DNA of 64,000 nucleotides from Octopus vulgaris (Eukaryota): contig OX597814.1 of the NCBI GenBank assembly GCA_951406725.2, forward strand, positions 213,714,001-213,778,000, in the 5' to 3' direction. Below, piece after piece: positions 15,760 through 61,116 of the stretch. Below the pieces are notes generated by a model. It worked only from the letters and a program-made list of their open reading frames with translations. It had not been told where the DNA came from and did not search any database. Positions within the stretch are counted from its first letter, which is position 1. Each line of letters starts with the position of its first letter. A program made the position numbers and the translations under genes.

Positions 15760-15817
15760 ATTCTAGATCCGGATTTCTGACTTTGCATTTATGAATGCTT
15801 TGTCTCGTCAGTAGAAT
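15760..15817 (-). ncRNA. Minimal type-I hammerhead ribozyme in a Penelope-like repeat remnant
   Basis: Minus strand: AUUCUA CUGACGA GAC-aaa-GCAUU-caua-AAUGC-aaa-GUC a GAA AUCCGGAU C UAGAAU. Canonical core, 6-bp stem I, palindromic stem III, AUC site. Confidence 0.75.
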
Positions 15818-17039
15818 ACCTTGTACTTTTAAATGCGCACACTACATATCCCACACATGTATCTACATCAATAACTCTACAATAATCCCCGCTCTTAAGT
15901 CTCAGTATTGTATCATCCAAAACTTTTGCTGCACGACCCCAACATTATATACTGGGTGCTCTGTAAGACTTGTCGTGTTCTCTACCTTAATGAAATGGCC
16001 AGTTGCTTGGAAATCATGTTCACCGCTTCTCTGGCAAGCTGTAGCTTCTATTTCAACAAACCTTATCACTCGGTGTCTAGCATGTCTTTCTTATACGATA
16101 TCACACTTCAAGAAACAGAAACAGCAAAGAACGAATACATATATATAAGATAAGATACGCATGCGTGTGCGGGGAGGGCATGTGTTTATGTATGTATGTA
16201 TGTATGTATGTATGTATGTATGTATGTATGTATGTATGTATGTATGTACGTACGTATGTATGTATGTATGTATGTATGTATGTATGTATGTATGTATGAA
16301 TGTACGTACGTATGTATGTATGTATGTATGTACGTACGTATGTATGTATGTATGTATGTATGTATGTATGTATGTATGTACGTACGTATGTATGTATGTA
16401 TGTATGTATGTATGTGTGTGTATGTATGTATAACATTATATACAGAATTTGAACCTTTTCTACTATAGATATAAATGAAGATTCTCTTTTATTGCTTCTT
16501 AATTCCATCCTGCTTCTTAGAGAAACATTGGATGTTATGCCCAATGCATTTATAAAACCAGGGATCGAGTGGAATTGGTAACTGGGGCAAAATGAGTAAT
16601 TTCTTATTTCCTTTTTATTTTCTCCCTGTTTTCTTCAAACCATTACATTTCAAGTATTGTATCATCATTCTGCACTGTTAAAACATAGTCAGGTGACTAG
16701 TACTATTTTCTGGAAAATTTCTCTCAATTTTGACCCGATTATAATTGAGGTTACTAATAAAATATCTGGATAATTTTGGGTGTTTAACAATCAATATTCT
16801 TTTCTCTCATGGATTTCAAGTCAATTTTCCCACACTAATGTCCAATTTGATAATTCTCAATTTTCAAAACAAAAACAAAGAAAATGTCTAAACTGGGGCA
16901 AAATGGGTAATGACTAATTTCAATAATTTCTTCACTTTAACTGAATACACAAATTTAAGTATATCAGGAAGAGAGCCACTCTAGCATATTGTGAAGAATT
17001 TATATCTATCATCTACTGAGTTTTTAGATTTAGTGGAGT

Positions 17040-17330
17040 TTCGTTAATTTCATATCATGTGCCAATTTTTCTATGACCCTCTTTCATTTGACCAAGACAT
17101 ATTTAACTTATGTGGCACTTCTGATCTCTCTAGTGTTTATCGATATATATTGATGCATATGAGTCCTTTATCATATGTAATTTCGGAGAATCGAAGAAGC
17201 AAATTTACCTTATCTTGTCTTAAATATTTTTGTCACATCTTAATTTGAGAATGGAGACAATTTTCTGAAATATGTGACAGTGTTTTAATGTCTTCAAAGG
17301 TCATTTGCTTAGCTGATATAGTTTTTATAA
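17040..17330 (-). pseudogene. Possible DNA-transposase C-terminal remnant (Sola1-like)
   Basis: Minus strand KTISAKQMTFEDIK...DKVNLLLRFSEITYDK loosely recalls Sola1 C-termini; contains stops. Confidence 0.2.
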
Positions 17331-18799
17331 GGCAGTCAACATTTTTAAAATAGTACTTTTTCTCTCTCAGAGTCATAAATGCAGTAGATATTACTCATAG
17401 TGCCCCACCACCCCCCACCCCCTTACCTTTCTTTTTTCTTATTCTTTTAAATGTCATATTCTTTTATGTCTGCGAGCTAGTGAGAGCTGATAGTACAGCT
17501 TCAACAATCCACAATTATAAGTGGCCTGTCATCTATATGATGCGTGTTTGTCCTCTTGACTATCAATACTGGTGTGTGTACTAATGAGTTTGAATAATGC
17601 TGTTGATAAACTACTTATTGTGGTCACTGACCTGGCTTACAAAACAGCCTGTTTCTTTCTTATATTGACCTTTACTCTCCGATCTAATCTTCCCTCACAC
17701 TGCCCTCACTCATTTCTTCTCCACCTAACCCTCTCGTAAATTCTCATCTCTCCCCCATCTCTCTCAGTCTGTGTCTATCTCTCGCCACTTTTCTCCCTCC
17801 AACTTGGCTCACAGGCATCCACGCCTCCTAAATTTCAGCCAGCTGCTGTGGTTTCTTAGTTACCAATTCGTATGTGCGATATTGTGTTAGTACACCCATT
17901 TATACCTTTGTAATAACCCATATTTTGAACAAGCAATACACCTTCAATCACACGCTCTCGTACATACACAATCCACAGAAATGCACATGTATATGTATTA
18001 TAGAATAAACTTATTAATTCAGTTAGATGGTCATCTATGGTTTATCCTATATTTCGTTAAATTACCAGAAACGAACACTGATGCTGGGACAGCAATTTAT
18101 TTATCCAACTAGCTGAAATGCGATTCATAAACTATTAACAAGAATTAATAATCTAGTATAGGGTATTTATGCAAATCGGATAATCCAGGAGCGAGCGATA
18201 TTCATGCAAATCGATTTCTCTGAATGAATAAAACCTTTTATAATAGTTGCTATATATAAAGTTTAGCCATAGAATAGAACTTGGTTGCTAATAAAATCCC
18301 AATAAAGCTGATCCACTTGATACTCCTGTCTTCTGTCCACGGAAAACAAACATGTCTACAGCTGATTAGTACAGTCAATTAAGAGTAATTCACATGCATT
18401 ATTGGCTAATACCTATAGTTTATTTTGTTCTACATTATAATTCATGTACGTGCACATACACACGTATGTGTGTGTGTATACGCACACATATATATATATA
18501 CATATATATAAATATATATAAATAAATATATATATATATATATATATATATATATATATATATATATATATATATATATATATACATCATAGTGAGGTAG
18601 GTCGGTTTATGGGGTTACACTGAGTTTCTCGCTCATAAGGGGTTTCGCCTTACGGCCTGAGACCGCTTTAAAATATGGAGGGGGAAAAAGTCTCGTTTTT
18701 GAGAGTAAAACCATGGGTGATTATCTCCCTTTTGCCATTGTCCATCGACCTTCAGCCGCGCTGCCATCTTGCGGTCAGCAAAGCACCACGAAGGTAGAC

Positions 18800-59127: not shown

Positions 59128-60531
59128 TCTCAACTACAATTAAACAATTAATTTTTAATACCAACGATCAACTTCTCATTATTAATTACTGGTCCATTTC
59201 TTTTCTATATATATATATTAAACCACAATTCTACTTTTAAATTACAAACTACTGTATACCCTATAGCTAGGACTATACGTATTGAGGTAATACACCAGTA
59301 GTGTCTACAGATACATTTATCCCTTAGATGGTTGAATAACATCTAACTCATACTTTGCTTATATATATATAAAGTTCGAATAATCAGAGAATGGAGAAAA
59401 CTTTTGATCAACAAACAAATTGGACCACACACACATATGTATGTATGTATGTATGTATGTATGTATGTATGTATGTATGTATGTATGTATGTATGTATGT
59501 ATGTATGTATGTTTGTATGTATGTATGTATGTATGTATGTATGCATGTATGTATGTATGTATGTATGTATGTATGTATGTATGTATGCATGTATGTATGT
59601 ATGTATGTATGTATGTATGTATGTATGTATGTATGTATGTATGTGCATATATAAATACGTTATAGATATATATATAACAGGCATTTATTCTCCACCATAG
59701 TTTCAAAACACTTTCTTGGTGAAACTTTAATTTCACATTCACATTTTAATAATGAAATATTTCTACTTCACTTACTGAGTTAATATCGTTTTAGTTTTCA
59801 TAGATAAACATGAAGACCTTCAATAATATATACAGAATGTGTGTGTATGTGTGAGAGAGAGAGAGAGAGAGAGAGAGAGAGAGAGAGGAGGGAGAGAGCG
59901 AGAGAGAGAGAGCTTTCAATGATGATTTATTGCAAAATTAGATTTTCCAATTCGTTTCGACTATGAAATGTACTTGAATAAATCTATGCTTAGGTTTCTT
60001 TCAGGTTTCAATATACTTTATATATAGTGTGAATTTATTGAAAATTTCCGAAGTTATCCTTGCAATTAATAACACTTTAACCTTTCGCTGAATAAATCGT
60101 AATTCCAAACTGCGTAAACTGTTCATAGCAAATTTTATAACAGCAATTCTGGTGGTGCTATTAAGTTAGACATGGCCTGGACCAATCTTTGGTCGAAACA
60201 TATCTAAGTTATCTAAGTTATATATAACTGGCTATATATAAGTATTTTCAGAAAGTGGTATATATAGTCATTTGAATTATGTCAGCGTATGTTCTTTTTT
60301 CATATTCTATTGCAAACTGAATTATTCGAAGTCAATGCTGCAATAATATGAGAGAGAAATGCTATTTTATCACACCACGCATTGCTTCTTCTAATGTCAT
60401 TTCGGCTCAACTGGGACAGTGTCAGACAAAATGCCTTACAATACTTAGTCCTAGCCATTCAAGTTCTTGTTCGGATATCGCCGAGACAGCAGTTATGGAG
60501 CCTTTGCAGATTTCCGATATAGTGAATATAT

Positions 60532-60830
60532 AATTGTTAAAGAGGACAACAAATGTTAAGTCAAGGCAAGCATCTCAAGAGTGAACTTTTATGCTTCTTT
60601 TTTTCTTCTCTTTTTTCATTTCTTTATTCCTTTATTCCTGTTCTCTAGGTCGTCATTTTATTAATCTATACCTTTCTCATTTTCCCTATTTGTCTCCGAT
60701 GACGGAATATCCAGTACTCTTAGGTATCCCAGAAACAGCTGTAAGACTTTGAATTTTTTCCAATAATAATATTGTATATGACTTGAGATGTTTGCCTTGC
60801 CTTAACGTTTGCTGTCCTCTTTAACAATTC
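60532..60830 (+). mobile_element. Penelope-like remnant with ~48-bp inverted ends next to (TA)n
   Basis: AATTGTTAAAGAGGACA...CATCTCAAG is mirrored at 60782-60829. Confidence 0.65.
60692..60747 (+). ncRNA. Minimal hammerhead (U4C)
   Basis: GUCU CCGAUGA c GGAAUAUC-loop-GGUAUCCC a GAA ACAGCUGU A AGAC; GUA site, palindromic stem III. Confidence 0.7.
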
Positions 60831-61053
60831 TATATATATACATATATATATATATATATATATATATATATATATATATATATATATCTTCCCTTCTTTC
60901 CTGAGCGTCCAATAATACTTTATTTGTTCCACGTCCTCGCGTTGTTGTGTTTTTTTTGTTTGTTTTCTTGTTTGGATTAACTTTATATATATATATATAT
61001 ATATATATATATATATATATAAGAGAGAGAGAGAGAGAGAGAGAGAGATAGCC

Positions 61054-61116
61054 AGATAACCGAAGAGATGGTGTTGTGGATTTCCACTTCGGCATCTGAA
61101 ACTCAGAGTTTTATCT
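61054..61116 (+). ncRNA. Minimal hammerhead (U4C)
   Basis: AGAUAA CCGAAGA GAUG...CAUC u GAA ACUC-A-GAGU U UUAUCU; 6-bp stem I, near-palindromic stem III. Confidence 0.7.

Follow-up and report, generated by a model that had tools for sequence, protein, structure and literature searches.

The Octopus vulgaris genome (NCBI GenBank assembly GCA_951406725.2) contains, on contig OX597814.1, a 64,000-nt stretch (positions 213,714,001 to 213,778,000 of the forward strand, hereafter the window) in which small repeats carry RNA folds of the hammerhead ribozyme (HHR) type. Eight repeat families, F1 to F8, are represented. Their folds very probably lie in the 5'-truncated ends of Penelope-like elements (PLEs), including their pseudo-long terminal repeats (pLTRs), and in short repeats likely mobilised by the same enzyme, and cutting as family-specific homodimers is predicted for the source elements. 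The features are as follows, in window positions.

15475..15819, minus strand: F1 copy, a 5'-truncated pLTR-like repeat that starts 2 nt before stem I
15760..15817, minus strand: F1 hammerhead, C3:G8, extra A before G12, stem III ATCCGGAT
19940..20083, minus strand: F2 inverted arm without tail; hammerhead at 20022-20072, G3:C8
20095..20309, plus strand: F2 arm with tail, ending in (TA)n
20108-20158, plus strand: F2 hammerhead of the tailed arm, G3:C8, extra G after A9, stem III AATATT
32832..33193, minus strand: F3 copy, about one 357-nt unit; hammerhead at 33054-33096, U3:A8, stem III ACTAGT
50706..51418, minus strand: F4 long arm, holding 1.3 units of a retrozyme-like repeat (unit length 557 nt); its 3' end falls in (TA)n, 196 nt beyond the cut site
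50901-50953, minus strand: F4 hammerhead in the long arm, stem III ACGTACGT
51416..51756, plus strand: F4 inverted arm, beginning inside the core (eleventh fold, clipped, 51416-51466); its 3' end falls in (TA)n, 292 nt beyond the cut site
58091..58337, plus strand: F5 copy; minimal hammerhead at 58165-58199, position 4 and the ACGT palindrome damaged
58329..58544, minus strand: F6 inverted arm without tail; hammerhead at 58426-58508, G12 lost
59034..59371, plus strand: F6 arm with tail; hammerhead at 59045-59127, one palindrome mismatch
60581..60835, plus strand: F7 copy; hammerhead at 60692-60747, C4 in the family majority, stem III ACAGCTGT
61048..61238, plus strand: F8 copy, read from its family's motifs as the 3' pLTR stub of a Hydra-clade Penelope-like element
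61054-61116, plus strand: F8 hammerhead, C4, extra U before G12, stem III ACTC-A-GAGT

Hammerhead folds in the window

A first-pass annotation, made from the letters of the window, had placed ten hammerhead folds in eight small repeat families. Reading the letters again, all ten have the layout of a type I hammerhead at those positions and strands, and all eight families were confirmed. The genome (2.8 Gb, 227 contigs) yielded 251-2,727 first-look candidates per family (F1 1,114; F2 737; F3 947; F4 1,495; F5 2,727; F6 251; F7 1,752; F8 546; all of these are lower bounds). The core N3-N4-G5-A6-N7-N8-A9 ... G12-A13-A14-A15.1 / U16.1-H17, together with stems I and II, is present in eight of eight family majorities. 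The ten folds represent eight insertions, as 20022/20108 and 58426/59045 are head-to-head arms of single events; being on opposite strands, the two folds of such a pair cannot partner each other in one transcript. The eleventh fold, clipped at its 5' side (51416-51466, plus strand), had been overlooked.

The extra bases assigned to both sides of the core in the 50901 and 60692 families are equally well described as a 10.1-11.1 mismatch. Three window copies are damaged: in 58426 a U replaces G12, in 58165 an A stands at position 4 and the ACGT palindrome is broken relative to the F5 majority, and in 59045 one palindrome mismatch departs from the F6 majority.

A descriptor requiring a Watson-Crick 3:8 pair found seven folds in the window, six of them with a perfect palindrome of at least 6 nt; 60 dinucleotide shuffles of the window gave a mean of 0.78 folds, and palindromic folds in none. 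When positions 3 and 8 were left free, a looser scan recovered nine of the ten. The hammerhead models of Rfam gave no match at E values up to 10 in 60600-61250 and 19900-20290, which hold four of the folds, and no hammerhead was among the 150 of 200 matches listed for the whole window. The Rfam matches to microRNAs and snoRNAs, mainly on microsatellites and the F2 inversion, were rejected as spurious.

The 3:8 core pair and genome-wide scale

The first-pass annotation had also stated that core positions 3 and 8 are always Watson-Crick paired. A blind scan of 100 ten-kb stretches (1.0 Mb) at round coordinates on contigs C1-C29, with positions 3, 4, 7 and 8 free and a score of 12 or more as threshold, returned 48 folds, of which 36 are C:G, six U:A, three G:C, one A:U and two unpaired at 3:8; eight of these matches come from one locus. 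Shuffled sequence gave 4.0 folds per replicate, with 0.4 of them paired at 3:8. The statement is thus borne out by 46 of 48 folds in a scan without that requirement, the G:C form resting on one family. When all collected loci were combined, 225 matches fell into 46 clusters; every one of the 18 clusters with two or more members is paired at 3:8 (14 C:G, 3 U:A and 1 G:C), and the seven unpaired clusters are all singletons. Within families, the pair is G:C in 48 of 51 F2 copies and U:A in 22 of 22 F3 copies. The 3:8 covariation is real. A3:U8 was rejected as a further form: in its sole candidate, locus L210, the other 14 aligned copies of the repeat are without the core.

F2, the G3:C8 family, is an element of about 215 nt whose 5' end is fixed, 14 nt ahead of stem I, and follows a G in eight of 14 copies. 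An exact 20-letter pattern of its core has 6,397 matches in the genome, against 0 for a control. Searching the whole genome with a loose G3:C8 pattern returned 45,614 matches, but its reversed control returned 33,506, a background too noisy for a second G3:C8 family to be recognised. Since G:C was seen in one family, it perhaps arose in a single event. At L179:4256-5982, F2 units form an array, 164-192 nt apart, with (TA)n of varying length between them.

Natural U3-A8 and U4C have been reported (PMC3088659), and an engineered C3G/G8C double mutant was described as partly restoring cleavage (PMC11167929). Like the engineered mutant, F2 is a Watson-Crick 3:8 swap that keeps the fold; unlike it, the F2 swap is fixed in nature, in at least 6,397 copies. 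F2 is, judging from its core, likely the natural form of the laboratory mutant, with putative cleavage. No natural G3:C8 was found in the literature searched, which did not cover Lunse et al. 2017 or the supplements of PMC4209133 and PMC3088659, and its novelty is provisional.

The large genomic system expected earlier is in line with an extrapolation of about 129,000 folds (bootstrap 78,000-190,000). So is the expectation that strict CUGAnGA searches miss part of it, as 32 of 46 folds carry CUGAnGA and 19 of 46 carry it without an extra base. CUGAnGA descriptors and Rfam therefore undercount hammerheads, with 14 of the 46 sampled folds lacking CUGAnGA.

Penelope-like elements and their insertion footprint

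The proposed association with Penelope elements is supported by F8, in which a reverse transcriptase (RT) plus GIY-YIG frame lies between hammerhead-bearing repeats, and by a Penelope footprint in seven of the eight families. Locus L174 has the order pLTR, open reading frame, pLTR, with a spacing of 2,516 bp plus an inverted arm, and at L164 and L165 the F8 frame is followed by a hammerhead. L174 is the one full-length F8 copy read, and its frame is broken; the frame carries RWK, DKT, a CxCx5C linker and CxxC/CxH around a conserved E and N, although its Pfam matches are weak (GIY-YIG, E 0.064). From these motifs, its size below 3 kb and its insertion in (TA)n, F8 is identified, at the level of sequence, as the pLTR of a Hydra-clade Penelope-like element. 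In the upstream F8 pLTR (L174:4901-5062), a 7-nt deletion takes most of stem III and the GAAA end.

F6 has a GIY-YIG endonuclease remnant upstream, on the same strand, in three of 20 loci, these being longer copies. For F5, PLE frames are close to four of 20 loci, which exceeds a background of some 7 PLE-protein loci per Mb; all four frames are on the opposite strand and belong to different families. F5 as the antisense pLTR of one PLE family was rejected, the four neighbouring frames coming mostly from different families. Among the 50 F4 loci, 20 were searched with PLE proteins.

According to previous studies, PLEs leave a one-sided tail and use two internal RT start sites (PMC8557442, PMC11167929). 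In seven families, neighbouring copies stand head-to-head in 64 cases and tail-to-tail in 6 (overlapping loci being counted more than once). An inverted 5'-truncated arm and two alternative 3' ends (tail) are present in F1-F4 and F7, and 3' ends fall in two clusters in F1, F2, F3, F6, F7 and F8. F4 is the clearest case: of its 38 3' ends, 37 are placed about 196 or about 291 nt beyond the cut site, TA repeats follow all but two, and in each of the 13 two-armed insertions for which both ends were listed, the two ends are of different kinds. These 3' ends agree with the pattern described for PLEs. The two ends are about 45-155 nt apart here, compared with a tail of 30-40 bp in PMC8557442.

Hammerhead and flanks decay at the same rate within families, so that the comparison between them is uninformative, and a lower rate of change at invariant core bases is possibly biased by how copies were fetched. 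As hammerhead and flanks decay alike, selection acted on the source elements and not on these copies; the window copies, decaying at the flank rate, read as inert remnants.

Elements of these families accumulate in the same microsatellites, as seen by eye in the F7/F8 region. Between F7 and F8, at about 60890-60985, a segment between TA repeats reads by eye like the 3' part of F5 without the hammerhead. The two F6 arms are separated by an element of about 380 bp (~58650-59030) ending in a GC-rich hairpin and CTAG, which we take to be akin to a non-autonomous Helitron.

Tandem families F3 and F4

F3 and F4 are non-coding tandem units with one hammerhead per unit, directly spaced at 357 nt in F3 (three cases) and 556-559 nt in F4. 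F4 insertions span 0.2-4.4 units and are mostly dispersed. Divergence among units is 0.55% inside one insertion, 0.50% from one inverted arm to the other and 1.9% from insertion to insertion. Folded as a circle, the unit is highly self-paired (z = -4.6 against 40 shuffles); 20 of 52 F4 loci were used for this comparison and folding. Contigs of three runs guessed to be RNA, plus one of unknown kind, cover 30 of 30 bins of one F4 unit, as presence only.

The 5' ends of F4 (n=42) are distributed uniformly round the unit (Kolmogorov-Smirnov p = 0.86). Uniform 5' ends and copies of up to 4.4 units indicate a template that was uncut through the hammerhead. We infer that this template was either a repeatedly copied RNA circle or a multimeric transcript of a uniform array, DNA alone being compatible with both. 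F4 has the appearance of a retrozyme for which a Penelope enzyme used uncut RNA, circular or multimeric, as template. Another young retrozyme-like family appears to be present at L181:2272-4548, where seven identical hammerheads with stem III ACCGGT recur about every 359 nt in an array of two arms.

Palindromic stem III and dimers

When the palindrome was left unscored in 800 kb of the scan, 30 of 36 paired folds had a perfect one, against 1.2 of 11.4 shuffle matches. A monomer could form a stem III of 0-3 bp. A palindromic stem III is seen across about 40 families. Stems I-III change in a compensatory way between related families, and F7 and locus L211 have the hammerhead in common with unrelated flanks. 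In co-folding, five of nine window copies formed the palindrome together with cross-paired stem I. The idea of a family code written in the palindrome was rejected, since palindromes recur between families.

Proposed mechanism and alternatives

In the mechanism that we propose, two copies of the fold in a tandem transcript would pair through the palindrome and exchange stem I strands, giving a double hammerhead, and selection on the fold in source elements would keep 3:8 paired, whichever pair is used. Cutting and ligation in F3 (357 nt) and F4 (557 nt) would yield RNA circles. Reverse transcription by the Penelope enzyme would begin at two fixed internal positions, both downstream of the hammerhead, with uncut RNA, circular or multimeric, as template, and the products would enter both strands of a TA repeat. 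Scattered copies, including the ten in the window, would be dead on arrival and decay neutrally.

Several observations weigh against this picture. No RT or endonuclease frame of their own was found for F1-F5 and F7 in the 20 top-match loci of each family. F5 has no head-to-head and two tail-to-tail pairs in 41 loci, and its 3' ends are diffuse. Four of the nine co-folded window copies did not give the double hammerhead, and the palindrome duplex is very weak in some families (F2 -0.2 kcal/mol, F5 -1.7). None of the 42 F4 5' ends lies within 5 nt of the cut site (0.8 expected); as they do not pile up there, linear cleaved RNA was not the template. Two F4 arrays are built of unlike units, one mixed (L273) and one alternating A-B-A-B (L287). 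In the latter, at G000:C13:6665108-6668276, it is private variants that alternate, the pattern expected if a dimer RNA circle had been copied twice, and both arrays fit a dimer circle or a later duplication. Published experiments also count here: cleavage was dispensable for insertion in vitro (PMC11167929), the activity of hammerheads as dimers was low in PMC4209133, and one of nine dimers was cleaved in a recent report (bioRxiv 10.64898/2026.07.22.740005).

A more ambitious reading, which we advance tentatively and hold at slightly less than even confidence, is that Penelope-driven families, numbering in the hundreds, give the genome some 10^5 hammerheads with three of the four Watson-Crick 3:8 pairs, including an active natural G3:C8 ribozyme. 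On this reading the young 557-nt family also preserves in DNA a long-proposed step, in which a Penelope RT starts at two fixed points, runs repeatedly round an RNA circle made by the ribozyme and copies it into both TA-repeat strands.

Instead of cutting, the fold could have been kept as a structure bound by a Penelope protein or host factor, or as a terminal-repeat signal, with cleavage slow or incidental. We consider this unlikely. The absence of F4 5' ends at the cut site agrees with it, as do two results of PMC11167929, insertion in vitro that did not need cleavage and an anole element whose cut site had no RNA-seq ends, and the several families that carry C4, since U4C lowers activity (PMC3088659). 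However, G5, A6, A9, G12, A13, A14, the UH site and the 3:8 pair are kept in about 40 unrelated families. The scan required those bases, yet folds are 12 times commoner than in shuffles, and the 3:8 pair, which it did not require, is a catalytic-core contact.

Active heterodimers between families with a common palindrome, processing each other's RNA, are very unlikely. The first-pass annotation had suggested this for F6 and F7, the ACAGCTGT families. Palindromes do recur, and 20 of 666 family pairs are compatible in stem III; one such pair, L188 (U3:A8) with L067 (C3:G8), could cross-pair stem I by 6 bp on both sides, and L188:7616-7658 with L067:1051-1118 is the only plausible heterodimer seen. 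A double hammerhead, however, needs both cross-paired stems I. Those of F6 with F7 reach 2 and 1 bp, which leaves the suggested heterodimer unsupported, and 19 of the 20 compatible pairs fall short of 3 bp on at least one side. One in 20 is no lower than the background of 16 in 666, so the counts give no hint that cross-talk was either favoured or disfavoured by selection.

The notion that the folds are chance patterns from AT-rich repeats, to which the 4.0 false matches per Mb that loose descriptors give in shuffles and the copy-specific accident of the single A3:U8 match might lend colour, is refuted by the shuffles (48 real against 4.0 shuffled matches, none palindromic in 60 window shuffles), the clusters and the palindrome and 3:8 counts, and the hammerhead has a fixed place in a Penelope-like element.

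Neighbouring elements in the window

An open frame at 53960-54505 (minus strand) lies beside (TTA)n arrays and has no relevant match in Pfam; it resembles the restriction-like endonuclease end of an R4/Dong-type long interspersed element (LINE). A mariner-type transposase fragment lies at 36661-37140 (plus strand; Mos1 helix-turn-helix, E 0.0017), and a second mariner-type copy, inverted, stands 13 kb away at 49878-50561. Three tandem 184-bp units at 28620-29170 derive from the genome's commonest repeat resembling a short interspersed element (SINE).

Comparison with known systems and significance

Minimal HHRs (min-HHRs) were described in the pLTRs of metazoan Penelope-like elements (Cervera & De la Pena 2014, PMC4209133), and Lunse et al. 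2017, as cited in PMC6765202, reported minimal type I hammerheads with a palindromic helix III in such elements. The octopus folds resemble those of PMC4209133 in being type I, with palindromic positions 15.2-16.2, an extra base after A9 and natural U3-A8; in the many unrelated families per genome, mostly as single truncated copies, and in the dimer model; and in opposite-strand pairs 100-700 bp apart. They differ in the whole family with G3:C8, palindromes of 6-12 nt and extra bases before G12, and in scale, with about 10^5 folds estimated here compared with 2,000-9,000 min-HHRs in single genomes there. Most features, such as the palindromic stem III, the extra core bases and natural U3:A8, had thus already been published (PMC4209133, PMC3088659), and as PLE and retrozyme hammerheads are of a known kind, most of the finding is annotation.

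F8 resembles the Hydra-clade PLEs with a C-terminal endonuclease (Craig et al. 2021, PMC8557442) in its size below 3 kb, single frame, RWK and DKT, and likewise in the CxCx5C linker, the CxxC/CxH around E and N, the pLTR hammerhead and the (TA)n flanks. The Hydra-clade section of that paper names Mollusca but no cephalopod.

Animal non-LTR retrozymes have been described and their mobilisation by PLEs proposed (Cervera & de la Pena 2020, PMC7229834; Li et al. 2026, bioRxiv 10.64898/2026.07.22.740005). Like these retrozymes, F3 and F4 are non-coding tandem units with one type I hammerhead each, and F4 is highly self-paired as a circle. In contrast to those retrozymes, F4 measures 557 nt instead of 150-450 nt and is mostly dispersed with Penelope-type ends.

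In a published annotation of octopus repeats, 31 Penelope-like families are given as recently active, and the word ribozyme does not occur in the main text (PMC13282606). No paper on octopus hammerheads was among the 20 of 51 literature matches listed.

The roughly 40 independent families, which differ in stems, palindromes and cores, are a ready panel for cutting tests and so for the role of the hammerhead in Penelope elements. With a G3:C8 core occurring naturally throughout a family, the evidence from nature for the 3:8 tertiary pair would be complete. Finally, the F4 footprint supports, on genomic grounds only, the mobilisation of retrozymes by Penelope and gives exact predicted RT start sites.

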